A DNA stretch of 64,000 nucleotides, taken from contig JAHWIP010000003.1 of NCBI GenBank assembly GCA_019322375.1, forward strand, positions 6,792 through 70,791, in the 5' to 3' direction. The translations under genes and the position numbers were made by a program. Shown here piece by piece: positions 32,267 to 61,412 of the stretch; position 1 is the first letter of the stretch; each line of letters starts with the position of its first letter. A model generated the notes under the pieces. It was not told the DNA's origin and did no database searches. It worked only from the letters and a program-made list of their open reading frames with translations. The DNA comes from Candidatus Woesearchaeota archaeon. Lineage in GTDB: Archaea; Nanobdellota; Nanobdellia; Woesearchaeales; SM23-78.

Positions 32267-32626
32267 GGTAGAGCAGTTATAAGCCGCCTTTTGTCAGCCT
32301 CCACGTCTTGCATGGGCAGGCTGTGCTTAACATTCTACTAAGCGTCTCAAAGGACTTGCACCAGTGAGGACTCGCCGTTTCACCCATTCCCATGGCTTAA
32401 AGCGGTCGGGTTGTTAACTCGCGCCCTGTTGCCAGAGTGCTTCATTACCCTCATTCCTATCCATAGGTGGTCTCGTTTCTGAGCCGTTGCCCTGGCTTTC
32501 ACCAGCTAGCTTCCACTAGTCACTTTTCATGGTGGGCGGACTTTCCTAAGCAGAACAAGTCAAAACCGCGCCTTTGAAAGCGCAGGAAATGATAGGTCCT
32601 ACCTGCTGTTAAGCCACTGCCCTACC
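32267..32626 (-). ncRNA. rnpB: RNase P RNA, archaeal type A
   Basis: On the minus strand: P1 pairing GGTAGGGCAGT (5') with ACTGCTCTACC (3'). CR-I GGAAAGTCCGCCC, GGGTGAAACGGCG, and CR-V ACAAAAGGCGGCTTATA. A G+C-rich island with no ORF. Confidence 0.85.
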
Positions 32627-42865: not shown

Positions 42866-45800
42866 ATGGATAAAGTAAAACTGAGATTAAAAAACAGAAA
42901 AGCACAGGTTTACCCGCTTTTTGTAGTGGTCTTTACAATAGTGGCCTTGACAACAGCCCTTATTGGCTTGAGCAATGCAAAAGAGGTTACTGATTTATCT
43001 GGCAGGGAAATGCTTATCGGCACCAAGCAATCAGCTGTTTTTGCATCTCTTCAAGACGCAGATGCTGTTAGTTTATTCATAGAGCAGGCAGCAGAATTTG
43101 CAGGCCAGCAAGCCCTGGATAAAATAAGAAAATCATGCTTTTTTGGAGTTGATGAGGAACAAGAAGTTGATGAGTGGGAGTCTCCATGCGGCAAGTTTGT
43201 TTATCCTCTTTGGAGCACTAATGAAAATCTTTGCCTTCCTGATTGTGAAACAGCTTTTGTCAATGCCTTTAACAAGGATTTTTTAAGCCGAACAAACAAG
43301 TATTATGAGTTCACAAACATAGAGCTGCCTATTTCTTATAACATGAGCCTGGAAATACATGACAATCATTTTTTTGTTCATGGAACCTCTGACACAGAAC
43401 TAAGGATTAATGTGGTTGATATTCAGAGCAGGATTAAGTCTCCCCTGGCAATAGCCCAGACTTATGAGGAAGGCAGGCTTATCTGGCCTGTTGATTACTC
43501 TGACCACACAATCACCTCTTGCTTTGGTGAAAGAGATGTTGTTGGGGGGAGCAAATACCATCCTGCTGTTGATATCCGGGCTCCAAAAGGAACACCAGTG
43601 CTGGCAGCTGCTTTAGGAAAAGTGATTCTTACTGACCCTTGCTGGGGAAGAATTGTTATTAATCATGGCTCTGGCTTAAGCACAGAGTATCTTCACTTGG
43701 AAAAAATTGATGTTAAGGTTAATGATGATGTGGTGCAGGGACAAAGAATAGGAACTTCTGGCAGCAATGGCTGTGACACAAGAGAGTTTGTTCCGCACCT
43801 GCATTTTGGGGTTATATATCAAGGTGTTCAGTCACCCATGCATTATAAAGGGCAGGAAATAGTTTTGAGCAACAACCATATCCAGCCCATGTGCTTGATT
43901 GAAAAAGGGTATGCTGCTAAGCCAGAAAGCAACTGCAACCAGCTTGTGAACACAGACTTAGACAAGATTTGTGAATTGTATAATCTGCCAGAAGAATTTT
44001 TTGAATCATCAGAATCATCAAAGCCATCAGAGCCATCAGAACCAGACCAAGACACTTCTTCTGAAGAAAGTGCTGATGCAGAGAATGCTGGTGCAGAAAG
44101 TGTTAATGCAGAAAGCACTGAGCTGGATTATTCTCTGGCACAGGCTCCTGGCAGCTATGCTTTTAAACCATCTTTTACCTTGAGGGTTAACAAGAAAATA
44201 GAAAACCCTATTGAGCCAGTAACAGAGTGGTTTGAGAACACCTGGAACGAGTGCGAGGATGACCCTTGGAAATGTTTAAGAGAAAAAATGAGTGAGTTTA
44301 ATGAGCAGGACTATGATTACAAGCTCATGTTTGCTGACAGGTGCGAGGAAGGCTATCACTTGTTCTATGACATACTGGAGTTTTTTGAGGACTGCTTTTC
44401 AAACCAGAAGTATGGGTGCTCATGCGAGTTTAATTTATCAGATGCTTTTTCAATAACTGACTTGCGAATAGTTTTTGACACACAAGCAAACACAGCCTCT
44501 CTTTTTTCCAAGCAGGGAGATAAGCCTGGTGATGAATATGAATTAATTGATTCATACCAGTTCTATTATGGAAGCATAACCAAGCCAGCCCCTGCTTCTC
44601 CTTATAGGTATTATGTGTATCAGCTTGATTATGATGATTATGGGGAGCTGGAAAATGCAGAGCTTATGCAAATGAAGTCATTGCTTGATGTATTTGATGT
44701 TGTGCCTTTTTTTGATTACAAAGAACTAAGACTGGCAAAGCCAGGAGAGGCTGAGCAAGGATATTTTGTGAACACAGAAACAATTCAGTGCAAGTACAAG
44801 AAGAACAAGTTCAGGCTGTGTGCAAAGCCAGCACAGGAAAGAGAAGACTTGTTCCCTATAAGGTTTGCTTTTCACTTAAAAGACAAGCCTCCTGAGCCTG
44901 TTAAAAAAGGAGATGTGGAAATTATAGAGGTGGAGGAGAGTTCTGAGTCAGATGTTGACAAGGTAATGCAGGCAGCAGGCTTTCTAGGAACCATATTCCC
45001 TCCTCTAGGCTACTTGTTCACAGCAATTAATATTCTCAGTGTGTTGGAAGACTTTAAACCAAGAAAGTTCGAGGTAATAGTTGATGTTCCTCTTGACAAG
45101 GATGGCAAACCCCTGGATGTTGCTGGCTATGAAGTTTATTGCAGTGATTACCTGACAAACATCCTGCCAGTGGATGTTTTGGATAAATATAATCCAAGTC
45201 ATTTTGTTGTGATGGCTAATGATGAGATGAATAAAAAAGTAAGCCAGCTAGACCAGTATGTTAAGAAGAACCCTTACACAGACTTTCTGAATCTTGAGAG
45301 CTGTGATGTGCCTGTGAGCAAGTTCACAGGAGAAACCATTCTTGTGCCTGGAATCAAAGGGGTTGTTAAGGACGGTAAAATGGTTTTCAACCTTCATAAA
45401 TGCGGGGACTTGGCAATAATTATAGATAAACTAATAAGAAAAGACTACTGTGTATCACTAATACCTGTTGACAAGAATGGCAACAAGATAATGGAGCATG
45501 CTGTGAGCAACTGCGCGCAAACCAATTCACTGCTTGACCTGGTTATTAGTGAGATGATAGAGGAACAGCTAGGAGAATTTATTCCTGCAAGCCTTATACC
45601 TGATAATTTAAAGCCTTATATCAAGCTGCCTGACACAAGCGATATTGTTAATGCAGTAACAGGGGAAGGCAGTTTTGACATGATAGACATTGTTAATCTT
45701 GACAAGCTGGACGCAGACATAAAAAATTATCTTGAGGAATTCGTGGTTGGAACTATTAATGAAGACATAATAGGCACTTCTGTTGTTAATTCTATTGATG

Positions 45801-46639
45801 ACTTAAAGCTCTGGGAAAAACAAACAGTGCTTAACACCCTGTCAAACCAGATAAAAAATGATGATGCAAAAACCTTGTTTGATGCCTTTGTAACAGGAGA
45901 AGGTGTTGCTGAGTCTGCCAAGCGCATGGCTTATGAAAAAGGAGTAGGATATATAGACCAGACAAAAACACCTGAGATACTTAAGGAGATAGCCAAAGGA
46001 GAAGACCCTAAAAGCCTTGCATACCAGGAACTGGTAAAAGCAGCTGAGAAAGAGCTCAGCACTGACGAGAAAAAACAGGCTCTGCTGGAGATAGCCAGGA
46101 GCAGCAGTGGAAGAGAGGTAAAAGATAAGATAATAGAAAAAGCCCTTGAAAAAGGATGCGGCGAGTCATATGGAATAAGTGCAGAGCAGGCAATCAACTG
46201 CCTTGACAATGAAGAGGTAGAAAATATTTATCACAAAGTTCTGACAGACTACAGCACACCAGACAAGGTAAAACAGTTTTTGCTTGACAAGGCAATTGAC
46301 AAGTTTGATGAAAAAACACCAGACGTGCTAAAAGAGATTGTTCTGAAAAGAGACTTTAAAGGAGCAGCAAAGGACATGCTTGAGAAAGAGCTTGACAAGC
46401 TTCCAGACGCTGTTAAGAAAGAGTTTATTACTGATATACTTGAAGGCAGGCTTCCAGATGTTGAGTACTTGCAGCAGGAACTAGTGAAAATGATACCAGC
46501 AGTAAACAATGAATATGTGAATGCCCTGCTAAAAGACGGCAATGTTAAAAACCTGATAGAATCAACCCTTAAATCAGAGATAGAAAAACAACTAGGCTCA
46601 TTCTTCTCAGATGAATGCGTGGCAATTAATAAGGATTGA
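42866..46639 (+). CDS. Giant (1257-aa) pilin-like protein with an M23 (LytM-type) metallopeptidase domain
   Basis: KNRKA-QVYPLFVVVFTIVALTTALIGL N-terminus. M23 motifs YHPAVDIRAP (HxxxD) and PHLHFGV (HxH) at about nt 43478-43841. Acidic S/E linker, an internal hydrophobic segment at about nt 44972-45046, and a K/E-rich repetitive helical C-terminus. Confidence 0.7.
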   Translation: MDKVKLRLKNRKAQVYPLFVVVFTIVALTTALIGLSNAKEVTDLSGREMLIGTKQSAVFASLQDADAVSLFIEQAAEFAGQQALDKIRKSCFFGVDEEQEVDEWESPCGKFVYPLWSTNENLCLPDCETAFVNAFNKDFLSRTNKYYEFTNIELPISYNMSLEIHDNHFFVHGTSDTELRINVVDIQSRIKSPLAIAQTYEEGRLIWPVDYSDHTITSCFGERDVVGGSKYHPAVDIRAPKGTPVLAAALGKVILTDPCWGRIVINHGSGLSTEYLHLEKIDVKVNDDVVQGQRIGTSGSNGCDTREFVPHLHFGVIYQGVQSPMHYKGQEIVLSNNHIQPMCLIEKGYAAKPESNCNQLVNTDLDKICELYNLPEEFFESSESSKPSEPSEPDQDTSSEESADAENAGAESVNAESTELDYSLAQAPGSYAFKPSFTLRVNKKIENPIEPVTEWFENTWNECEDDPWKCLREKMSEFNEQDYDYKLMFADRCEEGYHLFYDILEFFEDCFSNQKYGCSCEFNLSDAFSITDLRIVFDTQANTASLFSKQGDKPGDEYELIDSYQFYYGSITKPAPASPYRYYVYQLDYDDYGELENAELMQMKSLLDVFDVVPFFDYKELRLAKPGEAEQGYFVNTETIQCKYKKNKFRLCAKPAQEREDLFPIRFAFHLKDKPPEPVKKGDVEIIEVEESSESDVDKVMQAAGFLGTIFPPLGYLFTAINILSVLEDFKPRKFEVIVDVPLDKDGKPLDVAGYEVYCSDYLTNILPVDVLDKYNPSHFVVMANDEMNKKVSQLDQYVKKNPYTDFLNLESCDVPVSKFTGETILVPGIKGVVKDGKMVFNLHKCGDLAIIIDKLIRKDYCVSLIPVDKNGNKIMEHAVSNCAQTNSLLDLVISEMIEEQLGEFIPASLIPDNLKPYIKLPDTSDIVNAVTGEGSFDMIDIVNLDKLDADIKNYLEEFVVGTINEDIIGTSVVNSIDDLKLWEKQTVLNTLSNQIKNDDAKTLFDAFVTGEGVAESAKRMAYEKGVGYIDQTKTPEILKEIAKGEDPKSLAYQELVKAAEKELSTDEKKQALLEIARSSSGREVKDKIIEKALEKGCGESYGISAEQAINCLDNEEVENIYHKVLTDYSTPDKVKQFLLDKAIDKFDEKTPDVLKEIVLKRDFKGAAKDMLEKELDKLPDAVKKEFITDILEGRLPDVEYLQQELVKMIPAVNNEYVNALLKDGNVKNLIESTLKSEIEKQLGSFFSDECVAINKD

Positions 46640-46755
46640 TAAAGCTAATTCTTGCAACAAAAAGCCCATCCTGTGAATTATCCGGCTCTACTATGGAAAA
46701 GTTTTTAAAAAACCCCTCAGTTGTTCTTTTGAAAGAGTTATTAGGGTGGTATTTA

Positions 46756-48078
46756 ATGATTAACATGCCTTTAGAACAGATTAAGAGCAGGATTTCTGAA
46801 AAAACAGGCTTGTCAGATGAGGAGCTGGATGACAAGATTAAGGCTAAGCTTAAGCAGTTGTCAGGGCTTATTTCTGAGCAAGGAGCTGCTCATATAATTG
46901 CTAATGAGCTTGGTGTGAAGCTGTTTGAGATTGGTGAAAAGCTCCAGATAAAAAATGTGTTGACTGGCATGCGCAATGTTGATGTTGTTGGCAAGATACT
47001 GCAGAAATACGAGCTTAGAGAGTTTCAGACAGAAAAGCATTCTGGAAAGGTTTCTAACATGCTCATAGGTGATGAGACAGGTGTTATTCGTGTTGTTATG
47101 TGGCACAAGCAGGCAGAGAATATTAATAGTGTTAAAGAAGGAGATGTGGTCAAGATAAGAGGTGGCTATGTAAGGGATAACCAGGGCAGAAAAGAAATTC
47201 ATCTGAGCGAGCTCTCAAAATTCATTATTAATCCTCCTGGTGTTGAAGTAGAAGCAAAGCCTTATGAGCGCCCTGTTGCTGTTAGAAAGAGCATTGCTGA
47301 TATAAAAGAAGATGATGCTAGTGTTGAAATCTTAGCCACTATTGTGCAGGTGTTTGATATAAACTTTTTTGAGGTGTGCCCGCAGTGCAGCAAGAGGATA
47401 AGGCTTGGGGACCAAGGCTTTTTATGCCCGACCCACAGTATTGTGGAGCCGGATTATAATTATGTATTAAACCTTTACCTTGATGATGGAAGTGATAATA
47501 TAAGAGCTGTTTTCTGGAGGCAGCAGGCAGAGCAACTATTAGATATGGACAAATCCAAGGTAATGGTTTTTAAAGATGACCCTGCCAAGTTTGAGCCAAT
47601 AAAAACAGAGCTCCTGGGAAATATTATTTTGGTGAGTGGAAGAGCTAATAAGAATCAGAACTTTGACAGGATTGAGCTGGTTGCTAATAAGATTGACAAA
47701 AGCCCTGACCCTGATGAAGAGATAAAGAAGTTAAAACAAGAAGCAGACAAAGCAGTTGCGCAGGATGAAGGTGGGGATGAAGAGCAACAGAAATCGAAGA
47801 TTTCTGAGGGTTCCTACGGAACCGAAGAGGAAATAAAGCAGGAAGTAGCTGGTGGGGATGAAGAGGAAGAGATTAAGCAAGAGGAAGTAAAGGCAGAGGA
47901 AATTAAGGAAGAAGAACCTGTTGAAGAGGAAGTAAAAGAAGAAAAAATAGAAGAAGAGCCTATTAAAAAGAAAACAAAAGAAAAAGAAGATTCATTGCTC
48001 GCTCGCCAAGGCTCGCGAGAAAGCCAGGATGACTTAGAAAACCTTGACCTGGATAAAGAGTTAGAGGATATTGAGTGA
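46756..48078 (+). CDS. Replication protein A-like ssDNA-binding protein (OB folds plus Zn ribbon) with an acidic tail
   Basis: ATG 46756/46765 (MINMPLEQIKSRISEKTGLSDEELDDKIKAKL) is preferred over the track start. CPQCSKRIRLGDQGFLCPTH zinc ribbon lies between OB-like segments. E-rich C-terminus. Confidence 0.65.
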   Translation: MINMPLEQIKSRISEKTGLSDEELDDKIKAKLKQLSGLISEQGAAHIIANELGVKLFEIGEKLQIKNVLTGMRNVDVVGKILQKYELREFQTEKHSGKVSNMLIGDETGVIRVVMWHKQAENINSVKEGDVVKIRGGYVRDNQGRKEIHLSELSKFIINPPGVEVEAKPYERPVAVRKSIADIKEDDASVEILATIVQVFDINFFEVCPQCSKRIRLGDQGFLCPTHSIVEPDYNYVLNLYLDDGSDNIRAVFWRQQAEQLLDMDKSKVMVFKDDPAKFEPIKTELLGNIILVSGRANKNQNFDRIELVANKIDKSPDPDEEIKKLKQEADKAVAQDEGGDEEQQKSKISEGSYGTEEEIKQEVAGGDEEEEIKQEEVKAEEIKEEEPVEEEVKEEKIEEEPIKKKTKEKEDSLLARQGSRESQDDLENLDLDKELEDIE

Positions 48079-48091
48079 ATTAAAAATGTAC

Positions 48092-50200
48092 TTATCTTAC
48101 AACCCTGTCAAGACCAGCTTTTATAAAGGGCTCTTTTAATTTGTTTAATGCTTTTAATTCAATCTGTCTTATTCTTTCCCTGGTAACTTTGAATTCTATA
48201 CCAACTTCGTCCAAGGTATGGAAATTATACTTACCAATTCCAAAGCGCATGTAAAGAATTTTAATTTTTCTTTTACGGTCAGGATCCTTTTTAAAAGTGT
48301 CATGGATAACTTTTCTGACCTGATAACCTACTAATGATTGTGCAGCAGCATGTTCAGTATCAGCTTTTGGATCCTCAACAAGCTCACCTATTTCAACCTC
48401 TACTTCTTCTCCTATTGTTGTTGATAGTGAGATTGGTTTTTCAGCCCATTTTTTATACTTCTCAACTCTTTCCTCAGCAACATTCATTTCTTTAGCAACT
48501 TCTTCTGTTGTTGGCTCTCTGCCTAACCTGCCAAATAATTTCCTGGCAATTCCCAAGTACTTGTTTATTTTTTCCACTGAATGCACAGGAGTCCTGATAG
48601 TCCTTGCCTGGTCTGCTATAGCCCTTGTTATTGACTGTTTAATCCACCAAGTAGCATATGTTGAAAATTTATACCCTCTTCTGTATTCCCAGCTGTCTAT
48701 TGCTCTTAGAGCTCCCATGTTTCCCTCCTGAATCAGGTCAGTAAATTCCATACCCCTGTGCTGGTATTTTTTTGCTATACTCACAACCAGTTTTGTATTT
48801 GAACTTGCAAGCTCATTTTTGTTAGATATAAGCTCATCATGAAGCTTTTCTATTTCAGGGCTAACAGGGTCAAGATGAGGAAATATTGATTTGTAAGTTT
48901 CATAAGTTTTTTTCCAGTATTTTTTTTTGAATTTAAGTTTGCTAAGAAGCTTTTTCAGTGCAAAATCTCCTTTTTCTTTGGCATTATGAAAGTTCTCTAT
49001 AAATTCTATTTTTTCCCGAGCAGTCTTCTCATAACCTTTCCAAAGTCGTACTATTTCATCCGGGTGATTTATTTTAATAGCCTTTTCTATATCTTTTACA
49101 ACATAATCAACCAGGCATTCTGGCTTCTTATTGTCGCCTTGCAGGGAGCGCTCTTCAGACAATCCATTGTACAAGAAATTCCTGCTCTCAATTGTTTTGA
49201 ACTCATTAAACAGTTCTGTTAAGTATTTTGTTACAAACAAGTATTTTCCTAGAAAAGATTTTAGGGCTTTCTCCCTTCTTTTCTCAGCCTTTTCAAACTT
49301 TTTTTTGAAGACGTTCACATCTTCACAACAAATAATATCTTCAAGGTCTTTTCCCTTGTTTTCAAGGGTTTCATCCAAGCTTTCACCATGTTTTTTATTC
49401 AAGGCTTCCTGGGCTTCCAGGGCTTCATTAATATCCTTTCTTATTTTATTTAAGATATATTTTTTCTCAATAATATGCTTGAATATTTCTTCTCTTTTCT
49501 GCTCTATTTTTTTTCCAAAAGCATATTCCTGCTCTCTTGTTAGCAAGGCGTGCTTGCCCATGGAACTTAAAATAAAACTTGTTTCACTGCCAATATATGT
49601 CTTTCTCAAGTCTACTTTATCCTCCTCAAGGTCAGAGTACTCTTTTATCAAGAACTTATAATTATCATTAAAAATCTTATTTTTGTTTTCCAGAGCAGTT
49701 CTGTGCATGTCAAGAAGCAAGTTATAATAGAACTTTCTAACATCTGCCCTGTCATATTTTTTTCCATAGTCTAACTTAACAGGGTCGACATACCTGCTTA
49801 GTATAATGTCATGTTTTTTCATGTATGGGTCTCCGAATTCTTTTGGAGTCTTGGTTTCAATCTCTCTTTTTTTTTGCATCAGGTATGCCATAAATCCCCT
49901 TAACGAGATATAACTGTCTCTGTTTATATAGTCCAGGCAGAAAAAAGGATTTTTCTTAGCAAGCTTGATAAGAGCGCTGTTTTCAATATGAAATACTTTA
50001 GCAAGGTCAGCTGTTCTGAGCCTTTGGGAGTATCCAACTTCTTGTTTTAGAACAGAACCTTTTTGTATCAGGTCAAGAAAGAATTTTGAATCCATCTCTA
50101 TGTTTTCCCAGACAGAGGCTCCGAATTTTTCTTTGATTTGAGCAGGGCGCAGGTATATACCTTTGCTCTCTTCTAGAAAAGCATGGGCTGCTTCTTGCAT
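48092..50200 (-). CDS. Bacterial-type sigma-70 family protein (regions 1.2, 2, 3, 4) with a long N-terminal extension
   Basis: [53 protein letters not shown] (regions 2.1-2.4), [14 protein letters not shown] (1.2-like) and [18 protein letters not shown] (4.2 HTH). Confidence 0.8.
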
Positions 50201-50266
50201 TTTACTTTTTCACATAATTTAAAATATGTTTTAAATATATTTAAAATAATATATTCATATTTATTT

Positions 50267-52498
50267 TTAAACAATTTGGTATTCTTGCCTTACCTTCTTG
50301 TTTTTTTCAATGATAGGGATGAGCTGCTCTACAGCGCTTTTATGAAAAGCCTTTAAGTAGGTGTCTGTTGATGTCATTTTTAAGAAAGGAAAATCAGGGT
50401 CTGTGCTCATTCTGCTAAGCTGTTTGGGCTGAATCCTCATGCCAGTTGCTTCATATATATAATTTGAAGCTTGATGCACTCCAATTGTTTCTTTCTTGTC
50501 TTTTTTTATTAGTTCTATTTTTTCATCAAAGAACTTGGTAATAAAGATTTCTTCAAAACCGTTTTTTACAAGATAAACAGGCATGGTATTGCCTAGTTTT
50601 TCTATGTAGCTTATTTTCTTTTCAGGGTTATTGAACTCGTATCTTCTGAGATTCTTGATTAGTTTGGTTTCTATATGCTGGAACCGGGTTACACTTGTCC
50701 TTGCAAAGTTCTCTCTTATTATCTCAACCAGAAGTTTGTGCCCCCTAATTTTCTGAAGAATTTCAATTGCTTCAGCTCCCTTGTAAGTTTCGCTTGGTCT
50801 TTGATTAAAGAGACCTGCTTCTGCAAGCCTTCTGAAAACCAAAAGATTTCTTCCAGTGATTTCTGAAAGTTCTGACCCAGGGTACAGCCTTAAAGGATAA
50901 ATCTCTAGCATGTCTGGCCTGGTTTCAAGCCTTAAATCACCAATGCCTTCAAAAATCTGGGCAAGAGTCCTGCTGTTTTTAGATATAAGATTGTCATCTT
51001 CTTCAAAATACATTTCATCCAGCATGTCTATGAAACGCTTCATACCAAACTCTTTGAACTGCTCTGCTCTGTGCTTTGCAATAGCATACCCACAGTCCCT
51101 GCGAAATTCTGCTTTGAGGTGAGCCAAAAGATTTCTATCATCCTCAATTCTTTTTTCCTTATTTATGTAAATAACAGCACCATCTTCCTCTGTTTCCATA
51201 TATTTAGCAAAAGGGCCGGAAACTGATGGTTCTGCCAGCTCAATTTTAGTTTTTTTGTCTAATCTTTTTTCAACCCAGTCTGTTGCTTCTTTAAGAAAAT
51301 TTCTTAGCTTTGCTTCTTCTTTTTTTTCCTGCTCTCTCTTTATGTTTGTATAGATTCCGCGAGCAATATTTTTTATATGACTTTTTAGTTCTAAAAGCTC
51401 CTCAGTCCCTTTTTGTATGCGCTGCTTGTCAAATCCAAGATCTGGCTTTAATGATTCTACTTCTATAAACCCATATGTGCGTGCTGCAAAACCCAGAGCC
51501 ATTTCTTCCAGCTTGACAATTCCTCCTTCGCCCAGGGTTCTTCCAACCACAAGATGAATTCCACGCACATCCTTTTCTATTGTTTTATGCGGAAGATAAT
51601 ATATATGCCCTCTAATAGGACCGCATTTTTCTAGGGCATCCTTGATTTCATAAACAATTGCTTCTTTTGGAATAGGGGTTTCTATCTCTATATCATTCAT
51701 TTTTACTCTAAAAGCAGGGCTGAGCTGGAGTGCAAACTTTTGTTTAATCAAATCAGCAAGCTTGTCTGTTTCAATTGTGATTTTTCCTTTTTTAGAACCC
51801 AAAGGCTTCATAATGATTTCTGTGCCATGTTTTTTTTGGTCAGTTATTCTTTCTTCACTATAACTAACCTTTCCCCATAAGCCCTGATTAATTATTTTTT
51901 CTAAAGAACCATACTCTTCCTCAACATCCTCTATAAGCAGACTGGTGTTTAACTCAGGTATGGTGTGAGGGGATTCTCTTTTATCAAGAACTCTTTTGAC
52001 AATCCGCTCAATATATTTATCTTTTTGCTTCTCATTAAGATTCATCTCTTCAAACTTAGGGCTGGTTAAGATGGAGTGCTGAATGGTTTTTCTTACAAAC
52101 ACCTCTTTGGTATGATATTTTTTTCCTTTTCCTTTTTTTACTGTGCTCATTTGATAGCCAAAACAAAGGTATCTTATGAACTCCTTGCCTACTCCTGCAT
52201 CACCTATTTTTAGTCTTCCAGTGCGGGTTCTGGGGTTAAGCTTCTTAATATTAGTGCCATAAGTATTGAAGTGCTTAAGGTCTTCAAGATTCATGCCTTC
52301 CCCATTATCTCTTATGAGAAGACTTTTATTTTTATCATCAATTATTATTTCCACAAGAGGAGCATCTGCATCCCAGGCATTATCAATGCCCTGTATTATT
52401 GCTTCATAAGGGCTTAGAAATAGGGATTTGCCAAGATTCTCATGAAACTCTTTTGAGATTCCTCTCCTTACTTTAACAGTTTTCTTTGTCATCAACAC
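50267..52498 (-). CDS. GHKL-superfamily (HATPase_c_3 / MORC-like) ATPase with a large unassigned C-terminal region
   Basis: N-box IDNAWDADA, G1 box IRDNGEGM and G2-like GDAGVGKEF in the first ~110 aa. 743 aa in total. Confidence 0.65.
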   Translation of the reverse strand: MLMTKKTVKVRRGISKEFHENLGKSLFLSPYEAIIQGIDNAWDADAPLVEIIIDDKNKSLLIRDNGEGMNLEDLKHFNTYGTNIKKLNPRTRTGRLKIGDAGVGKEFIRYLCFGYQMSTVKKGKGKKYHTKEVFVRKTIQHSILTSPKFEEMNLNEKQKDKYIERIVKRVLDKRESPHTIPELNTSLLIEDVEEEYGSLEKIINQGLWGKVSYSEERITDQKKHGTEIIMKPLGSKKGKITIETDKLADLIKQKFALQLSPAFRVKMNDIEIETPIPKEAIVYEIKDALEKCGPIRGHIYYLPHKTIEKDVRGIHLVVGRTLGEGGIVKLEEMALGFAARTYGFIEVESLKPDLGFDKQRIQKGTEELLELKSHIKNIARGIYTNIKREQEKKEEAKLRNFLKEATDWVEKRLDKKTKIELAEPSVSGPFAKYMETEEDGAVIYINKEKRIEDDRNLLAHLKAEFRRDCGYAIAKHRAEQFKEFGMKRFIDMLDEMYFEEDDNLISKNSRTLAQIFEGIGDLRLETRPDMLEIYPLRLYPGSELSEITGRNLLVFRRLAEAGLFNQRPSETYKGAEAIEILQKIRGHKLLVEIIRENFARTSVTRFQHIETKLIKNLRRYEFNNPEKKISYIEKLGNTMPVYLVKNGFEEIFITKFFDEKIELIKKDKKETIGVHQASNYIYEATGMRIQPKQLSRMSTDPDFPFLKMTSTDTYLKAFHKSAVEQLIPIIEKNKKVRQEYQIV

Positions 52499-52676: not shown

Positions 52677-53210
52677 ATGCCTAAAAAAAAGGATTCAAGC
52701 CCTGTTTTTGAAATATTCGTTGTTCTGGCCATAGTAGCTATTGTGGCTGTTACAGGACAGGTGCTGTTGCGTTATGAAAACACAGGCAGTTCTGCCAATG
52801 CTATTACTGGCTTTGCAGTTGCTGAGTATGAAGAGGAAATGGTTGAAGAAGAATTTCTTGATGTGGGTGTAGATGATATAAAGGTTAATCCTCCAAGCCC
52901 GTTAATAGGAGAGCCGTTTGAAATCAGGGTGATAGTTGCTAACAAAGGCTTTGTGGAGATAAACACTCCTTTTTATGTGCAGGCAAAACTAATACCTAAT
53001 GCAGAGAATGTTAAGCCCACGCTTCTCAACAGCGTGATAACCCAGATATTAAAGCCAGGAGAAACCTCAACAGCTGTTTTCAGGATAGCAACAGTAACAA
53101 AGGAAGGTCCTATGAAGATAATAGCAACAGCTGATTCTACTGCCAAACTAGGAGATGATAATCCTTCAAATGACCAAAGAAGCAAAACAATTATATTAAC
53201 CAATCAATAG
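52677..53210 (+). CDS. N-terminally anchored CARDB-like (Ig-like) surface protein
   Basis: VFEIFVVLAIVAIVAVTG anchor. DIKVNPPSPLIGEPFEIRVIVANKGFVE ... GETSTAVFRI resembles CARDB domains. Confidence 0.5.
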   Translation: MPKKKDSSPVFEIFVVLAIVAIVAVTGQVLLRYENTGSSANAITGFAVAEYEEEMVEEEFLDVGVDDIKVNPPSPLIGEPFEIRVIVANKGFVEINTPFYVQAKLIPNAENVKPTLLNSVITQILKPGETSTAVFRIATVTKEGPMKIIATADSTAKLGDDNPSNDQRSKTIILTNQ

Positions 53211-54264: not shown

Positions 54265-57200
54265 ATGTTTTCCTGGGCTTGTATGGCACAATCATCCATG
54301 TTTATTGGCAAGTTTGAATTTGAAGGGCCAGGCTCACACCTAACCATGACTCTTTGGCAGGGTAACAAGGCTTACCAGTTCTCAACTAATTTCATAGGGG
54401 TTTATCCTAATGACCAGACCAAGCTTAAGAAGAAAAAAACCATTTGGCCTGCAAGCAGGGAAAAAAAGATTTCTCTTGAAAAAATACTTGTGGAACAGGG
54501 CTTGGAAAAATCAGATTCTTTTGATATAAAACAGGGAGAATACGCCTTTGATATAATAGACAAAAGAATTGTGCAGCTTTTTCTGGATAAAAGAGATTAT
54601 GACAAGCTTCCGGAAGAAGCAACCAATGAGCTGATCACCTGCCACACTCAAAGCATGAAATGGGATTTTGGAATCATGCAAAAAGCAGAGATAGAGTCCT
54701 GGTTGTTAAAGATACTAAAGGAAAAGAGCAAGTTAGACCAGGAAATTGATTCCTTGTACAAGGCAATGCTCAGGACCAATAAGAAACAATTAACAGGTTC
54801 ATTAGATGATATAACGAGTTTTATTAAAAAAGATTATCATAAAGATGACTTTGATAAAAAAATTATTCCTTTGCTTTTTGAAAGCATTGGGTACAGATTT
54901 AAACAACAAGAAGATAAAAATTTATTGATTCACCTATTTCAGCAGACCAGGTATTCTTTTAAGCACAAGCATCATTATATTAATGCACAGAAAAAAGTGT
55001 TTGAGCCTTTAGACATAGAGATTGATTACCCTAAATTAACAGACAAGAAAAATGATGCTTATTATAAAAAGATATTAAAAAAGCCTTTTGGCAGAAGATT
55101 TCTTGAAAACAGCAAGCAGGTGCTTGGTGAAAAAGGCATAGATGCAATATTTTCCAAAGATAAGGAGATATACATCCTTAAATCAGAGCAGGAAGAATTG
55201 TTTAATACCTTTAAGAGACTGCTGAGCCATAAAGCAGAGTATCCTGATGTAGAGGACTATGTGGAGAGCATAAAATACCAGCTGGAAGACTTGTTCTGCA
55301 GAGTACAATACTTTAATCTTCACAGCAAGACACGCAAAGACCTTAGGAAGCTGGTTAAGGAAAAACTAGAAGAAATAGGGGGCGAAGAGAGAGACAAAGA
55401 TAATTTGAATTATGATAAAAAGATTTTTGAACGTGCACAAAGACTCAGGCAAAAAAAGCAGGACTTGGAGAGCAGGATTAAGCAGATAAAAAGCTCCAAC
55501 ACCCTGAAGTATGACTTTGACTACCAGAGAACAATGCTCTTTCTTGACATAATGCACAGGCATCCTGAAGTAAAAGGAGATGATAAGCTTAAAAAAAAGC
55601 TTAGAAAAAAGATTTATTTTGAAGGAATAAAACCAAAAGGAATGATTAATGAGCATGAATGGCTTGACCAGACACCCAGTGTTTTCCTGGACATAGAAAA
55701 ATTTCAGTATGGAACACCAGAAGAGGTTATTAATGCAATTATATCTTCTGTAAGAAGAGTAGATGGAGAATACATAGGGCGGATAGATACTGATATTGAT
55801 TCAGGAGAAAAAAATATTCTTGGTTTTCAAATAAAACACCACCATAATAATATGAACCTGATGCTATCCTCTGCTGATTTTATTAATCCAGAAAGATGCT
55901 ATACTTACTTTACCCAGGGCGACTATGATTTTAAGCATTTAAGCAAAACCAGGCTTTTTAGGACTGGCAAGGAAAAAGTGATTGTTCCAAGGCAAAAGGT
56001 GCATGAGGAGTTTATCAGGCGTTATGACATACCAGGCGTATCTATTAACACAGTCACGCTTGCAAAAATAATTTGGCCTCACCTGCTTAATCACAGATTA
56101 GCAACTCTTGTCAACAAATTATATCAAAAAGAAGGAACAGAAAAAGTATTTGAAAAATCATTTGACTATGAAGAATTAAGAGAACAAGCAGGGTTGGCCA
56201 AAAAAGGAGATAAAGAAAAAGCTTATGACATACTATATTATGGAGGGGATGATGTTGATAAACCATTCAAAGCCTGGCTTCATCCAAAAGCCAGATACAT
56301 CTTTAAAGACCTGCTGGAAGTGTGCAACACCTTTGGCATAACACCTGACCAGGCAAGCTCTAATGCTAACACAGCAGCCCATCTTTTTGAAAAAAGATTT
56401 TATGAAAAATCCGGAGGCATACTCTCTCCAGGCATCTTTAGGCAGAAACACCAGGAATTGGCCAAGGAGTTCAGAAACAAATATACTGAGTACAGAACCA
56501 AACATTTGCTAGAGCAAGGCCTGAAAATAGATTTTGAAAGAGGAGTCCAGGACAATGTCAGCCAGCTCTACTTTTCTCCAGAACTGTTCATATGCAAAGT
56601 GCTTTACCCTGATTTTCCAGGAGTAAAAGCCTTTGTTGACAGAACCATGCGCATGAAAAACCCTGAAAGAAAGGTCAGCAGGCTGCAGTATGTAAAACCC
56701 TTTGTGGTAAGCATGCTAACAGATTTATACGGAATTCATAAGATACAAGACGAGATAAAAGTGCTTGAGAAAGAAAAAGCTGAACTTCTTGAGGAAATAA
56801 GAGGAATGCCTGAAAGCCAGGAAAAACAGTCGGAAAAAGAACAAAAAATAAAGGCTTTTGGAGGGAAATGGGAAAAAATCATTGACAAATTAATAAGCAT
56901 GAATAATAAGAAGTATTTCTTTGGACAACTATTCGGAGTTAAATGCGAAAAAGTAGAGGAAAGAGTACAGCAGGCATACAAAACAATAGCAGATGTAATC
57001 AATGAGAATGATATTCATCCCTTGCAAATAAAAGGCAACTTTATCTATGCAAAAGAAAATCTTCCTGACAAGGTGCTGAGAAAAGCAGGCTTGTTCAGGA
57101 TGAGGAATATGCGAATATTTAATATGCAGAAAAATGAACTCACTTTTCATGCAGAAGACCAGTACGCAGGCTACCCGCCCAGGCTTGACCGCCCGGGTTT

Positions 57201-57738
57201 TCATTACAGCATGTTCCAGACAAGAATAATCAAAGAAGCCCTGGACAGGCTTTTGCAAAAAAAAGAAGACTATCTTGGAGTCCTTAATATTATAAACACA
57301 AGCTCAACCAAATTATCTGCAGACCTGCCAACAGCCCTTGTTAATCCTAAATTAGAAAAAAACCAGGCATTTATACAGGACTTGTTAAAATACAATAGAA
57401 CCAAGAACCGCTATGTGGGCAATGATGAAAAAGGAAAAAGAGAATTTACAGAGCACAACAAAAAATTCTACAGGCCAGATCCCAAGTACTTTATGAGAAA
57501 GTTCTATGGAAAAACAAGCAAAGACATAGATGTTCATGCTCCTATAGCCAAGCTCTTTGGAGGAATAATAAACCTGGGAGAAGACAATTCCAGTGATACA
57601 AAAAAAGAATTTTGGCGTCAAAGACAGATGTACAGGCAGCTAATATCTGAGACTATGCTGAGCAGGCAGGAATTAAAGCAGATTTTAAACCAAGAGCTTG
57701 CAGTGCATGAACCAGGCGGACAGTTTATTATTATGTAA
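54265..57738 (+). CDS. Divergent family-B DNA polymerase-like protein (exonuclease motifs present, polymerase motif C not recognisable)
   Basis: Exo I VFLDIEKF, Exo II YFTQGDYDFKHL, Exo III YDILYYGGDDVDK, motif-A-like VQDNVSQLYFSPE. Where YGDTDS is expected I read IKGNFIYAKE, and where KKRYAG is expected I read EDQYAGY. Start codon uncertain. Confidence 0.45.
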   Translation: MFSWACMAQSSMFIGKFEFEGPGSHLTMTLWQGNKAYQFSTNFIGVYPNDQTKLKKKKTIWPASREKKISLEKILVEQGLEKSDSFDIKQGEYAFDIIDKRIVQLFLDKRDYDKLPEEATNELITCHTQSMKWDFGIMQKAEIESWLLKILKEKSKLDQEIDSLYKAMLRTNKKQLTGSLDDITSFIKKDYHKDDFDKKIIPLLFESIGYRFKQQEDKNLLIHLFQQTRYSFKHKHHYINAQKKVFEPLDIEIDYPKLTDKKNDAYYKKILKKPFGRRFLENSKQVLGEKGIDAIFSKDKEIYILKSEQEELFNTFKRLLSHKAEYPDVEDYVESIKYQLEDLFCRVQYFNLHSKTRKDLRKLVKEKLEEIGGEERDKDNLNYDKKIFERAQRLRQKKQDLESRIKQIKSSNTLKYDFDYQRTMLFLDIMHRHPEVKGDDKLKKKLRKKIYFEGIKPKGMINEHEWLDQTPSVFLDIEKFQYGTPEEVINAIISSVRRVDGEYIGRIDTDIDSGEKNILGFQIKHHHNNMNLMLSSADFINPERCYTYFTQGDYDFKHLSKTRLFRTGKEKVIVPRQKVHEEFIRRYDIPGVSINTVTLAKIIWPHLLNHRLATLVNKLYQKEGTEKVFEKSFDYEELREQAGLAKKGDKEKAYDILYYGGDDVDKPFKAWLHPKARYIFKDLLEVCNTFGITPDQASSNANTAAHLFEKRFYEKSGGILSPGIFRQKHQELAKEFRNKYTEYRTKHLLEQGLKIDFERGVQDNVSQLYFSPELFICKVLYPDFPGVKAFVDRTMRMKNPERKVSRLQYVKPFVVSMLTDLYGIHKIQDEIKVLEKEKAELLEEIRGMPESQEKQSEKEQKIKAFGGKWEKIIDKLISMNNKKYFFGQLFGVKCEKVEERVQQAYKTIADVINENDIHPLQIKGNFIYAKENLPDKVLRKAGLFRMRNMRIFNMQKNELTFHAEDQYAGYPPRLDRPGFHYSMFQTRIIKEALDRLLQKKEDYLGVLNIINTSSTKLSADLPTALVNPKLEKNQAFIQDLLKYNRTKNRYVGNDEKGKREFTEHNKKFYRPDPKYFMRKFYGKTSKDIDVHAPIAKLFGGIINLGEDNSSDTKKEFWRQRQMYRQLISETMLSRQELKQILNQELAVHEPGGQFIIM

Positions 57739-58922: not shown

Positions 58923-61412
58923 TTACTTTTCAAAGATTAGATTGCAGTTTGATTCTACAATTAAAGCAGCAGCTTTTTGCAGAGAGCTAATCCTGTTCTG
59001 GTTGGCATCAAGTATTACTCCTTCTGAAGAGCTAAGCAGATTTCGTATTTCATTATAATTAATCATATTAATATTAGCCAATCTTTGTAGCTGTGCCAAA
59101 TTGTTTATTATAATCATCCTTCCACAATCTCCCTCAAATCTTATATTGTAGGTGCTGAATGGAGATGACACAAGGTTAATCATTCCACTGAAAAGAGGGA
59201 CTGCTCTCTGGTTTTCTGTTCCCATTAGAGAAGCTGATACATCAAAAGCACTAGCAGCCATGTAAGAAGGATGATTATTACCATAACTCACAAGAGGATC
59301 TCCTATCAACTCCATTTGAGAGGGTATGTTTGGGTTAATTTCTCCGTAAGGCCAGGCTATAGTAATGAAATAATCTCTTGAATCCTGGAGTGCAAATCTT
59401 ATCACATCTCCTATCTTATGTCCTTGATTAAAGTAAGGCATAATCCAACTAGCCCAACCGGATCCTGTTCCTAAAAGATCCACGCTGCCATATACATTTG
59501 TTGATAATGATCTAAGAGTGCTGTCAAGATTATTATCATAATTAACATGTTTGATTGTGCTGCATGCATGCAAGTACCATAAAGATGGCTTATGAGGTCT
59601 CCTGCTCAGAATTGAATCTGCATTAACATGGGGTTCAGTTGCACTTAAATAATTTGGACCTCCATGGCCCTTGAGTATTACAAATTCACTATTTTTTGCC
59701 AAATCAAGAATTAAATCCAACGGAGGATTATTAATCAAACTGTTGGTGTCAGTTGGATCTCCATAAGAATCAACCTTGCTTGCACCATACATTTTATTGA
59801 GGTTTTCTATAATTGATTTTGAATCCCAACACCTATATCCTATTGAGCAATTCGCAGTCCAAGTTATGTCCCAGTCAGAAGAAAAAACAGCTTTCTTACT
59901 TATTTGTATAAGATTGTTTTCTTTTAGCCAGCCAAGATTTAATAGTATTGAAGCACTGGTTAAATCATAACCTGTTATTCTTCCAACACCCATGTCAGGA
60001 ATAAAATATTTATCTTGGTCTCCAATATCACTAGAGCTCCAAGCACTGTTTCTATCAGCATACAAAATATCAGCACTGAATTGCTGTAAGAAAGGGTTGT
60101 CACTCATATTTATGATTTCAATCGGCATCCTGTAAGTATATGGAATTTTAAGTCTGTCAGCAACTATGGTCATGTACTTGAATTCCTGGTTATTATTGTA
60201 AGGTCTTAACAAGTTAAGTTGTCTATCAATATCATTATCAAAGCTGAAAGTACTGCCTGCTGCATCACCCTCTACAGATATCAAAGCAGTATTTCGGTAT
60301 AATACATAGAGAACTCCAAGTTTTGAGTAATCTGAAGTTACTTTAGGAATAACAGTAACAATCTTTTCACTGGAAATACCTTGGTTTAGTTTTATTTCTG
60401 CATTCCTAATATCAGGAACTTGCTCTATGTTGCTGGAATAAGAGTAAAGATATCTTCTTGTATAATCATTGTTACCAAAATAAATTATTTTTCTTGAAGG
60501 TATTTTTTCAATATATCTACTAACATCCAGCACAGAGTCCAGAAACAAACCATTGTTTTTACCAGCCCAAGCAGACGCATAAGGCTTTAACTCTTCATTG
60601 TCTGAGAAGGAGATTAGTCGAAATGGGGATACTAGCATTTCATTAACTGTAGATTTCTGATATTCAATGCCTTCATTTGTTAGATAACGTTCAATATTAT
60701 TGAAATTTTCATTATCTTCATAAACAATTTTTACCAAGACATCTTTTGTAAGGGCTTTTAAGAACAGTATTATCTCGTATTCCCGACCTTCAGTATATAT
60801 TATCACAGGAACCTTATCATTATTAACAGCAAGAGGAGCGATTTTTAGCAAGGTATCTGTGTTTTTTACTATGAACACGTATGATAAAGTGTCACAATCC
60901 TCATCTATTTGTCCATCACAGTCATTATCCTTTCCATCACACACTTCAGGAACACAAGCAGATATACATTGGTTGTTTTGGCATGTTTGGCTGCTTTGGC
61001 ATGTTCCGCAACTTCCTCCGCAGCCGTCGTTACCGCATTCTTTGTCAGCACAGTTAGGGGTGCAAGCAGATACACACTGGCCATTCTGGCAGCCATTTTC
61101 ACAGCTATAAGATGTACTTCTAATCCTATTTCTTCTACAATAATACTCTGTAAGATCCTTACTGCCAGTGCACCCATCAGTTTTAGTCGTAGAACCTGCT
61201 CTGGTAGTTCCTCTCTCATAATAATCCCTGCCCCCATCAGAATCAGTGCATGTTGTTCTACCCCCTCTCCTGGCTTCACCAATAATATTGCCTTGTTCAT
61301 CAACCAATAGAACTGTTGCATTAGCAGCCATCATAAAGCCAATTAATGCTACCAGGGCTACCATCAGCACCAGGCCAATCATTGCACGATTAGGATTAAT
61401 GGTTTTTTTCAA
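58923..61412 (-). CDS. Secreted/anchored Cys-rich protein with a clan-CD (gingipain C25-like) cysteine peptidase-like C-terminal region
   Basis: Signal anchor AMIGLVLMVALVALIGFMMAANA. Cys-rich modules include CDGKDNDCDGQIDEDCD (MopE-like metal-binding motif). H-G ... C dyad candidates VILKGHGGPNY and LWYLHACST lie ~35 aa apart. Confidence 0.45.
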   Translation of the reverse strand: MKKTINPNRAMIGLVLMVALVALIGFMMAANATVLLVDEQGNIIGEARRGGRTTCTDSDGGRDYYERGTTRAGSTTKTDGCTGSKDLTEYYCRRNRIRSTSYSCENGCQNGQCVSACTPNCADKECGNDGCGGSCGTCQSSQTCQNNQCISACVPEVCDGKDNDCDGQIDEDCDTLSYVFIVKNTDTLLKIAPLAVNNDKVPVIIYTEGREYEIILFLKALTKDVLVKIVYEDNENFNNIERYLTNEGIEYQKSTVNEMLVSPFRLISFSDNEELKPYASAWAGKNNGLFLDSVLDVSRYIEKIPSRKIIYFGNNDYTRRYLYSYSSNIEQVPDIRNAEIKLNQGISSEKIVTVIPKVTSDYSKLGVLYVLYRNTALISVEGDAAGSTFSFDNDIDRQLNLLRPYNNNQEFKYMTIVADRLKIPYTYRMPIEIINMSDNPFLQQFSADILYADRNSAWSSSDIGDQDKYFIPDMGVGRITGYDLTSASILLNLGWLKENNLIQISKKAVFSSDWDITWTANCSIGYRCWDSKSIIENLNKMYGASKVDSYGDPTDTNSLINNPPLDLILDLAKNSEFVILKGHGGPNYLSATEPHVNADSILSRRPHKPSLWYLHACSTIKHVNYDNNLDSTLRSLSTNVYGSVDLLGTGSGWASWIMPYFNQGHKIGDVIRFALQDSRDYFITIAWPYGEINPNIPSQMELIGDPLVSYGNNHPSYMAASAFDVSASLMGTENQRAVPLFSGMINLVSSPFSTYNIRFEGDCGRMIIINNLAQLQRLANINMINYNEIRNLLSSSEGVILDANQNRISSLQKAAALIVESNCNLIFEK

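Follow-up and report, generated by a model that had tools for sequence, protein, structure and literature searches.

Sigma factors are a defining feature of bacterial transcription, and archaea initiate with TBP, TFB and TFE. What, then, does a long sigma-70-family protein do in an archaeon? We address this question for a 64,000-nucleotide (nt) stretch of DNA from Candidatus Woesearchaeota archaeon (assembly GCA_019322375.1, contig JAHWIP010000003.1, positions 6,792 to 70,791 of the forward strand), hereafter the window, which encodes such a protein of 702 amino acids (aa). The gene is a stable resident of the Woesearchaeal (DPANN) chromosome and is ameliorated to it, and it lies in an operon behind a gene for a MutL/MORC-type GHKL ATPase. 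This partner, absent from an initial annotation made from the DNA letters and their translations, is the most informative feature of the locus. We propose, with a probability of roughly 40%, that the sigma protein serves as an adaptor, targeting the ATPase to promoter complexes of a bacterial-type RNA polymerase (RNAP), probably that of a bacterial partner.

The class of sigma is not new, because it has been published for Woesearchaeota (PMC8204110) and this very protein is annotated by NCBI (100% match to MBW2990167.1 on a 71-kb contig, named 'sigma-70 family RNA polymerase sigma factor [Candidatus Woesearchaeota archaeon]'). Castelle et al. 2021 (PMC8204110) describe sigma-70 genes as 'particularly prevalent in Woesearchaeota' (fam00359), exclude mis-binning, report that no anti-sigma factors were found and leave the mechanism open. 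The window sigma matches fam00359 in type of organism and type of gene, a likeness drawn by description only, and the passage concerned is silent on architecture, residues, a GHKL partner, the N-terminal domain and a CarD fusion. No paper going further on these sigmas was found in the literature searched, and the ATPase–sigma operon, the new N-terminal domain and the ATPase–CarD fusion appear to be undescribed.

The sigma protein and its place in the chromosome

Regions 1.2, 2, 3 and 4 of the sigma-70 family all score above the curated Pfam gathering cut-offs (Table 1) and, together with a spacer resembling the non-conserved region (NCR) of RpoD, follow in the same order as in bacterial RpoD/SigA. 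The protein passes the TIGR02937 sigma-70 superfamily model (90.2 versus a cut-off of 42.9), and its best matches in the PDB are RpoD/SigA at ~240 bits, with the group 2 factor SigB at 191 and RpoS at 166. Residues 461–563 align without gaps to residues 376–478 of E. coli sigma70, and identity over regions 2–4 is ~52–55% to the RpoD of both E. coli and Aminicenantes. With primary sigmas the best PDB matches and an alignment free of gaps, the similarity is not that of a generic helix-turn-helix. The spacer aligns with its bacterial RpoD counterpart (alignments at 35–39% identity that cover 69% of the query), is 44% identical to that of the archaeal orthologue and is spanned by single alignments (aa 210–692 to NF004208; residues 208–695 to PDB 6wmr).

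While RpoD equivalog models are the best NCBIfam matches, all fall short of their cut-offs (NF004208, 339 versus 555; NF006666, 285 versus 572), as does TIGR02393 (RpoD_Cterm; 283 versus 354). Since the superfamily cut-off is passed and the equivalog cut-offs are missed, we treat the protein as a divergent derivative of a primary sigma and not as RpoD. Pfam detects no region 1.1 (PF03979) in it, although the bacterial best matches have this domain. By sequence comparison, the window protein is thus best described as derived from a primary (group 1) sigma that has lost region 1.1 and gained a family-specific N-terminal domain of ~205 aa.

This N-terminal domain carries the motifs YL..EI..G..FW..D..FFP.LI, GYSQRL and YISLRGF, and alignment and hidden Markov model (HMM) searches find it only in archaeal sigmas linked to the ATPase, its distribution having been traced through the genes that adjoin the partner. 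It has no relative in Pfam (E up to 1), the PDB or PHROGs, a metagenome scan with its patterns returned nothing, and profile comparison with the partner ATPase revealed no relationship. The AlphaFold2 model of the sigma protein has a mean predicted local distance difference test (pLDDT) score of 49.9 and is confident only at aa ~60–120, where it predicts a beta-alpha-alpha-beta-beta-alpha unit. Winged helices of the excisionase/MerR type in the sigma and the ATPase were considered from the order of secondary structures, judged by eye in low-confidence models only, and are not claimed. A phmmer match between a CarD query and the sigma ORF (open reading frame; E = 3e-4) was judged spurious and attributed to K/E-rich composition; Pfam sees no CarD domain there.

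The initial annotation had recognized sigma-70 regions 2–4 and a region-1.2-like motif, and both identifications hold, with all of its quoted motifs present. Its positions needed small corrections: the stretch from DLIQEGN to PVH lies at aa 488–540 (nt 48581–48739) and not at nt 48600–48830, and the replication factor A (RPA)-like gene, correctly placed as the adjacent gene, is 13 nt away rather than 14 nt. 'Full-length' is apt for regions 1.2 to 4 and not for region 1.1, and what had been taken for a ~470-aa K/E-rich N-terminal portion resolves into three parts, namely the novel domain (aa 1–205), region 1.2 and the NCR-like spacer (aa 241–455).

Functional residues were examined in an alignment of E. 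coli sigma70, an Aminicenantes RpoD and the sigmas of four archaeal lineages (the window and loci L001, L007 and L016), with numbering as in E. coli. In bacterial sigma70 the helix D403–G408 binds the beta-prime clamp helices; its D403, Q406 and E407 are kept in 4/4 archaeal lineages, and N409 is replaced, by D, in L001 only. The same holds without exception for the melting and −10 residues Y425, Y430, W433, W434, Q437, R441 and R451, for E458 of the extended −10 contact and for the −35 residues R584, E585, R586, R588, Q589 and K593, while H455 of the extended −10 contact is changed (to Y) in L016 only. Compared with RpoD/SigA, the clamp-helix, −10, extended −10 and −35 residues of the window sigma are identical or conservatively replaced.

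A wider set, termed bacterially invariant, took in the 158 positions at which E. coli and at least 97% of 118 bacterial hits have the same residue. All four archaeal lineages keep 53 of them, mainly in regions 2.3–2.4 (17/35), region 4.2 (16/28) and regions 2.1–2.2 (12/36), which include the DLIQEG helix; regions 3.0–3.1 (2/25) and 3.2 (2/21) are relaxed. Another 12 positions, L402 and H518 among them, are changed in all four lineages.

Over regions 2–4 the archaeal sigmas share 39–47% identity with one another (60% between the window and L001) and 46–53% with bacterial RpoD. They evolve much faster than RpoD itself, in which E. coli and Aminicenantes, from different bacterial phyla, still share 69%, and they are, on these comparisons, fast-evolving offshoots that each retain the functional core. 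Identities and a neighbour-joining tree place each of them about equidistant from bacterial RpoD, and because of this even spacing and the narrow bacterial sample neither a donor phylum nor monophyly can be read from them. A 3-residue insertion after region 3.2 and the replacement of L402, both common to the archaeal sigmas, hint at a single origin. A contrast in charge between basic archaeal and acidic bacterial sigma70 proteins was rejected, the closest bacterial RpoDs being equally basic (median net +19).

The chromosomal setting is archaeal, as initially annotated, with genes in the window for RNase P RNA, the tRNA-splicing endonuclease EndA, the Holliday-junction resolvase Hjc, a TrmB regulator and replication factor A. 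The impression that codon style does not mark the sigma gene as foreign was also confirmed: its GC content (0.355), GC at third codon positions (0.333) and codon-usage distance (0.67) are ordinary for window genes of similar length. An orthologue of the window sigma (P0002, ~53–54% identical) was found in two ENA samples, one SRA run and one GTDB representative metagenome-assembled genome (MAG), and its independent assemblies keep the order CARDB-like gene, GHKL ATPase, sigma and convergent RPA gene; the genes for RadA and ribosomal protein S2 are close by. Conservation of this order across independent assemblies of a relative at ~53% identity excludes an assembly chimera and answers the concern about chimerism that accompanied the first annotation. 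Collections of viral contigs, phages and plasmids contained no full-length relative of either the sigma or the ATPase, only the head of the latter being matched, and so provide no evidence for an origin from a mobile element.

The ATPase partner and its fusion to CarD

The first gene of the operon encodes a protein whose N-terminal head is that of a GHKL ATPase. PF13589 is matched with 45.4 bits (cut-off, 25), the residues N40, D43, A44, D64, G66 and G68 are invariant in the family, and the best PDB matches of the head are PMS1, MORC2 and MutL (E = 1e-8 to 1e-6), together with PMS2. The likeness to MutL, MORC and paraMORC proteins, with their N-box and G-box motifs, covers only the first ~130–150 residues. 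Unlike those proteins, the partner shows no sequence match to an S5-fold transducer domain after the head, to the C-terminal endonuclease/dimerization domain of MutL or to a CW zinc finger, and the ~600 residues beyond about aa 150 contain no domain recognized by Pfam (including permissive searches) or the PDB. Type II restriction enzymes of the BbrUII/HgiDII type have GHKL heads that are likewise matched, in 7/7 family members, and the partner head also matches the phage family phrog_6203. The AlphaFold2 model of the partner has a mean pLDDT of 37.5.

A word-index search with the partner retrieved three clusters, comprising its own entry and two relatives at 53% identity, and an exhaustive HMMER search retrieved 559 hits at E up to 0.001, four of them at E up to 1e-30. 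Every named member of the family that we examined belongs to Woesearchaeota or Nanoarchaeia, so that among named members the family is specific to DPANN. A sigma gene adjoins the partner-family gene in 7/12 informative contexts. As a control we used 80 loci with generic HATPase_c_3 genes (532 kb in total), taken from a metagenome scan matching generic GHKL motifs, and none of the 80 contained a sigma-like ORF.

The partner gene is followed by the sigma gene in the window and at loci L001–L004, L005, L006, L007 and L011, with gaps of 2–66 nt. The 66-nt spacer is that of the window; because the equivalent gap is 2–23 nt in five other loci, we regard the two genes as an operon. In all five of the closest full-length partner relatives, the gene 2–23 nt downstream begins with the N-terminal domain of the window sigma. 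Complete sigmas of ~700 aa with regions 2–4 are present in L001 and L007, region 1.2 being detected in L007 as well, and in L005 and L011 the sigma gene is cut by the contig end. Since this N-terminal domain occurs only in partner-linked sigmas, it is a natural candidate for contact with the ATPase.

Some loci depart from the pattern. In L006 (2342–3358) the sigma-like gene has the N-terminal domain and region 1.2 but only part of the spacer, ending at codon 338, ~420 nt before the contig end; a pseudogene, a truncated form or faulty assembly may account for this. In L004 (2190–4390; DAOWFR010000042.1, a GTDB representative MAG) the partner is split into ORFs of 426 and 315 aa, which could reflect a frameshift, a sequencing error or a pseudogene, and the sigma is 99.9% identical to that of L001. 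The NCBI label of this contig, Methanobacteriota archaeon, looks wrong as a phylum for what resembles Woesearchaeales. A remote family member (P0133, 25% identity; L016/L017) is divergent to a 567-aa sigma that lacks the N-terminal domain. Four further remote members have no sigma nearby, and one more is cut just downstream. Members without a sigma adjoin a KilA-N DNA-binding protein (L013, 5604–6431) or a second, tandem HATPase_c_3 gene (L098, 242–4167), which hints that the ATPase family pairs with interchangeable adaptors. In L013 the ATPase sits three genes from a 2028-aa protein of the M23 peptidase family.

One relative exchanges the operon for a fusion. P0235, a 1027-aa protein of 'Nanoarchaeota archaeon', consists of the partner-family head and middle region followed by the Pfam domains CarD_TRCF_RID and CarD_C (L008, 3352–6435, also L009 and L010; MBU0456843.1 and two other accessions; assemblies GCA_018824365.1 and GCA_018822505.1), and its gene adjoins an S-layer gene. 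The CarD part, in which the tryptophan of WNRRYR is kept, matches the CarD-family structure 2LWJ (E = 2.5e-43) and mycobacterial CarD (~1e-28). CarD/CdnL factors are not homologous to the window sigma; an intact module of this kind, fused to the partner's ATPase family in Nanoarchaeota, represents a parallel adaptor. In bacteria, CarD works at the upstream edge of the open complex, as does region 2 of sigma. That one DPANN ATPase family is joined to a sigma by operon and to CarD by fusion is the strongest clue that the family acts with RNAP–promoter complexes and not with DNA alone. In the literature searched we found no report of CarD in DPANN archaea, and the window itself contains no CarD-like ORF and, elsewhere, no second sigma-like or partner-like ORF.

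The two genes of the operon also change together. Between the window and the genome of L001/L002, identity is 54% for the sigma and 55% for the ATPase, compared with 76% for each of the flanking RPA and CARDB-like proteins; by this sequence measure the two evolve at an equal rate, about twice that of their neighbours. Sigma and ATPase thus co-evolve, and they do so at a pace that is commoner among proteins taking part in an interaction or conflict than among parts of the basal machinery.

Transcription of the module appears to be archaeal. The TATA box of AAAGGTTTAAATA, which includes a B recognition element (BRE), lies ~40 nt upstream of the ATPase start codon, and an AAAG(A/T)TTTAAATA element precedes all partner genes examined, including that of the CarD fusion. 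BRE/TATA elements in front of the partner genes imply that the module is transcribed by the archaeal basal machinery. The 23 nt that follow the TATA box (ATATCTATTATTCAGTAGCAAAA) are conserved as well, so that an operator or a conserved leader may be present in addition to the promoter. The second conserved intergenic block, GCACTGGACATCCCTGAGTAAAGTATATAAA, probably supplies the divergent CARDB-like gene with its TATA box and leader, or else is an operator. Both blocks are almost identical between genomes whose proteins share 54–76% identity. A scan of 42–61 kb for sigma70-type promoters yielded 74 sites versus 50.5 ± 6.6 in shuffled sequence; these were weak, mostly intragenic and unconserved in the orthologous locus, and were not used.

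Table 1. Coordinates in the window of the ATPase–sigma module, its parts and its synteny anchors, and of the RNase P RNA gene, with the basis for each
Feature	Coordinates	Strand	Basis or remark
Sigma-70-family gene	48092..50200	−	ATG start, 702 aa; ORF and Pfam regions 1.2, 2, 3 and 4 above cut-offs
N-terminal lineage-specific domain (aa 1–205), in place of region 1.1	49586..50200	−	alignment and HMM search
Region 1.2 (aa 211–237)	49490..49570	−	PF00140 (Sigma70_r1_2), 24.8 bits versus cut-off 22
NCR-like spacer between regions 1.2 and 2 (aa 241–455)	48836..49480	−	single alignments to bacterial RpoD
Region 2 (aa 466–534), with core-binding helix DLIQEGN and −10 recognition and melting residues	48599..48805	−	PF04542, 73.9 bits versus 24
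Region 3 (aa 543–616), with extended −10 residues H and E and relaxed region 3.2 finger	48353..48574	−	PF04539, 71.5 bits versus 25.3
Region 4 (aa 647–690), −35 recognition helix	48131..48262	−	PF04545, 51.2 bits versus 24.1
AT-rich spacer between ATPase and sigma genes	50201..50266	−	66 nt; equivalent gap 2–23 nt in five other loci
Partner MutL/MORC-type GHKL ATPase, 743 aa, first operon gene	50267..52498	−	PF13589; PDB heads; synteny; NCBI 'ATP-binding protein', 741 aa
GHKL ATPase head (aa 31–154)	52037..52408	−	N-box and DxGxG box invariant across family
Archaeal-type promoter block, AAAGGTTTAAATA (BRE and TATA) then ATATCTATTATTCAGTAGCAAAA	52514..52553	−	near-identical in L001, L002 and L006
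Second conserved intergenic block, GCACTGGACATCCCTGAGTAAAGTATATAAA	52598..52628	.	conserved between window and L001
Replication factor A (RPA-like) gene	46636..48078	+	convergent with sigma gene; synteny anchor; same position in L002; orthologue 76% identical
CARDB-like gene, small, membrane-anchored	52677..53210	+	divergent from operon; synteny anchor; hydrophobic N-terminus; orthologue in L001 and L004, 76% identity
RNaseP_arch (RF00373), archaeal RNase P RNA	32269–32573	−	121 bits, full length

Where the module may act

In the reading that we favour, sigma regions 2–4 would dock on a bacterial-type RNAP core and on −35/−10 promoter DNA, and the novel N-terminal domain would tether the ATPase. 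An ATP-driven clamp of the MORC/MutL kind would thereby be delivered to bacterial-type initiation complexes, a job that the CarD fusion would do within a single polypeptide. The polymerase targeted would belong to a bacterium, be it partner, host or prey, and would be reached by cell–cell contact, which would make the module a device for cross-domain interference or manipulation rather than a part of the archaeon's own basal transcription.

The choice of target follows from what the archaeon appears to lack. No gene for a bacterial RNAP was present among the scanned ORFs of the window or in the flanks of the compared loci, which are partial genomes only, and to our knowledge a bacterial-type core RNAP has not been reported for archaea of the Woesearchaeota type; a bacterial partner's polymerase is therefore the most likely target. 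PMC8204110 suggests that such archaea may be episymbionts of bacteria, and bacterial hosts have also been suggested elsewhere (bioRxiv 10.1101/2025.11.11.687807). Two genes from the sigma, a giant membrane-anchored surface protein of 1257 aa (42866–46639, +) contains a Peptidase_M23 domain at aa 231–321, and we count this nearby peptidoglycan hydrolase, together with the published suggestion of bacterial hosts, as supporting a bacterial partner as target. The bacterial MzaA/MzaB pair, discussed below, is a precedent for a sigma and a GHKL protein in a conflict system. The initial annotation had named an effector aimed at bacterial RNAP as one option, and this option gains indirect support from the CarD fusion, the ~2x evolutionary rate and the episymbiont suggestion.

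Several results weigh against the bacterial-partner reading. The secretion signal that the first annotation had thought worth looking for is present in neither protein: sigma and ATPase have no signal peptide and no hydrophobic or membrane segment (Kyte–Doolittle 19-residue maxima of 0.65 and 0.82), and both are predicted from sequence to be cytoplasmic. Delivery would accordingly need a hypothetical contact-dependent route. The module lies among housekeeping genes in stable synteny and not in any evident effector or defence island. In the four archaeal sigmas, L402 at the core interface has become T, S, A and S, and in the 3.2 finger H518 is E in all four; the L402 replacement and the relaxed finger could mean adaptation to a non-bacterial polymerase. 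The best-conserved parts of the sigma are the DNA-reading ones, which also fits a role on DNA only, and the AlphaFold2 models of sigma and ATPase are too poor for an interface to be judged.

The strongest competitor draws on several of these observations. An anciently transferred sigma (elsewhere, CarD) may have been retargeted to the archaeal RNAP or to promoter DNA and, with the ATPase, regulate a subset of genes beside TBP, TFB and TFE. The clamp coiled-coil bound by sigma region 2 is a universal RNAP element, and an archaeal promoter, cytoplasmic proteins, stable housekeeping synteny and full codon amelioration all count in favour of such an in-cell regulator, as are the derived changes common to the four lineages (L402 to T/S/A/S, A382, V416 and the 3.2 finger). 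The prevalence of the sigma in Woesearchaeota, as reported in PMC8204110, makes it a lineage trait, and the lack of TFE-beta in DPANN (PMC7289017) leaves room for another stabilizer of the open complex. However, two unrelated modules, sigma and CarD, would each have needed refitting to the archaeal polymerase, and the residues that read −35 and −10 elements are still the bacterial ones, although the operon itself is driven by promoters of the BRE/TATA type. Matches to sigma70-type promoters in the window are of low quality and for the most part intragenic, and evolution ~2x faster than that of flanking housekeeping genes would be unusual for basal machinery. On balance we find an in-cell regulator possible, if doubtful. 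The narrower option of the initial annotation, an old acquisition serving only as a DNA-binding regulator, is weakened because the core-binding helix is kept in four lineages and the ATPase family is fused to CarD. A specific form of in-cell action, in which sigma or CarD docks on the archaeal RNAP clamp and, controlled by the MORC/MutL-like ATPase, directs or stabilizes promoter opening at some of the archaeon's genes as a hybrid pathway beside TBP, TFB and TFE, seems to us unlikely; under it, retargeting would have left its footprint in the replacements at L402, A382, V416 and H518 that all archaeal copies share.

Another reading takes the module for a reduced relative of bacterial sigma-plus-GHKL immune systems such as Mza (mzaABCDE) that guards the archaeon from viruses or foreign DNA, with the sigma sensing or marking foreign complexes or promoter-like DNA and the ATPase acting on them. 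The likeness is that MzaA is a long (~700-aa) sigma with an N-terminal extension, encoded with a GHKL ATPase. MzaB is reportedly MutL-like. A description of mzaA as a sigma factor is given in PMC9523054. MzaA is the only PADLOC match of the window sigma (174 bits, over the sigma part only) and its model NF041931 the second-best NCBIfam class, but the score of 279 compares with a cut-off of 800, and only profile positions 316–704 are matched, leaving the N-terminal 315 without counterpart. The MzaB model weakly matches 1/7 partner-family members (E = 1.9e-5), the window partner not being among them. The shared heads of restriction enzymes (7/7 members) and phrog_6203, the fast evolution and the status of Mza as a validated anti-phage system speak for defence. 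Against it, none of the loci contains MzaC (Z1), MzaD (nuclease) or MzaE (AIPR), the neighbours being RPA, CARDB-like, RadA, IleRS, Trm1, GatB and TruD genes, a housekeeping context, and no effector domain (nuclease or toxin) was detected in the sigma or the ATPase. No virus of DPANN archaea is known to use a bacterial-type RNAP. The resemblance to Mza is real as 'long sigma plus GHKL ATPase', but membership of Mza fails, and we consider a defence function improbable.

Could the ATPase mainly regulate the sigma, as an anti-sigma-like or chaperone-like switch comparable in principle to SpoIIAB/RsbW? Such a role could be combined with any of the targets above. Bacteria do have GHKL proteins that silence sigmas by binding them, and the tight operon and equal evolutionary rates are consistent with one here; PMC8204110 reports no anti-sigma factor in these genomes. 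However, SpoIIAB/RsbW kinases are ~145-aa proteins of the HATPase_c_2 type, whereas the partner has 743 aa, belongs to a MutL/MORC class of 720–750 aa and matches only HATPase_c_3 and HATPase_c at E up to 1, with no HATPase_c_2 family even in permissive scans. The CarD fusion, moreover, fits 'adaptor plus ATPase' better than 'factor plus inhibitor', and we rate regulation of the sigma as the ATPase's main role very unlikely.

Finally, a mis-assembled or mis-binned bacterial fragment or a decaying recent acquisition, to which the bacterial RpoD best matches outside the clade, the split partner of L004 and the stop after 338 codons in L006 might point, is effectively refuted by the same gene order in independent assemblies from at least three samples at 53% protein identity, by native composition, codon usage and an archaeal promoter, by intact ~700-aa frames with functional residues kept in lineages 39–47% identical in regions 2–4, and by the exclusion of mis-binning for the class in PMC8204110.

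Neighbouring genes and what the module means

Other features of the window were recorded beside the module. The stop codon of the M23 protein overlaps the RPA start by 4 nt, and its L002 counterpart is only ~30% identical. An ORF of 1157 aa (54265–57738, +) has no match in Pfam, NCBIfam, PADLOC, PHROGs or the PDB; motifs seen by eye (FLDIE, GDYDF and YYGGDD) are reminiscent of a putative DEDD 3'-5' exonuclease. The orthologous locus L001 has no such ORF, which therefore does not belong to the sigma module. A second large ORF (58923–61412, −; 829 aa) combines a Peptidase_C25 (gingipain-like) domain with a MopE-type metal-binding motif and encodes a putative large surface protease. Two ORFs that adjoin the RNase P RNA gene (31196–32199, −), one with a HEPN domain and one for a nucleotidyltransferase, overlap head to tail, an arrangement typical of HEPN/MNT toxin–antitoxin pairs. 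Terminator-like hairpins followed by T runs number 34 between 42000 and 61000, about twice the 15.5 ± 4.3 of shuffled sequence, and are mostly intragenic. ARAGORN detected zero tRNA genes across the whole window.

Unlike RpoD, the window sigma is archaeal, is driven by a BRE/TATA promoter, carries a novel domain in place of region 1.1 and is obligatorily paired with a GHKL ATPase. An oddity of Woesearchaeota that has been published and unexplained since 2021 thereby becomes a defined, clonable and testable ATPase–sigma system with a sister CarD fusion. Were the module to act on the polymerase of a bacterial partner, no earlier molecular mechanism for the manipulation of a bacterium by a DPANN archaeon would be known to us, and the question of which organisms host these widespread archaea would be touched as well. 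Action on the archaeal polymerase would instead make it a hybrid initiation pathway with implications for the relation of the two transcription systems. With either target, the module gives a clue to what the sigma subunit does in bacterial immunity of the Mza type.

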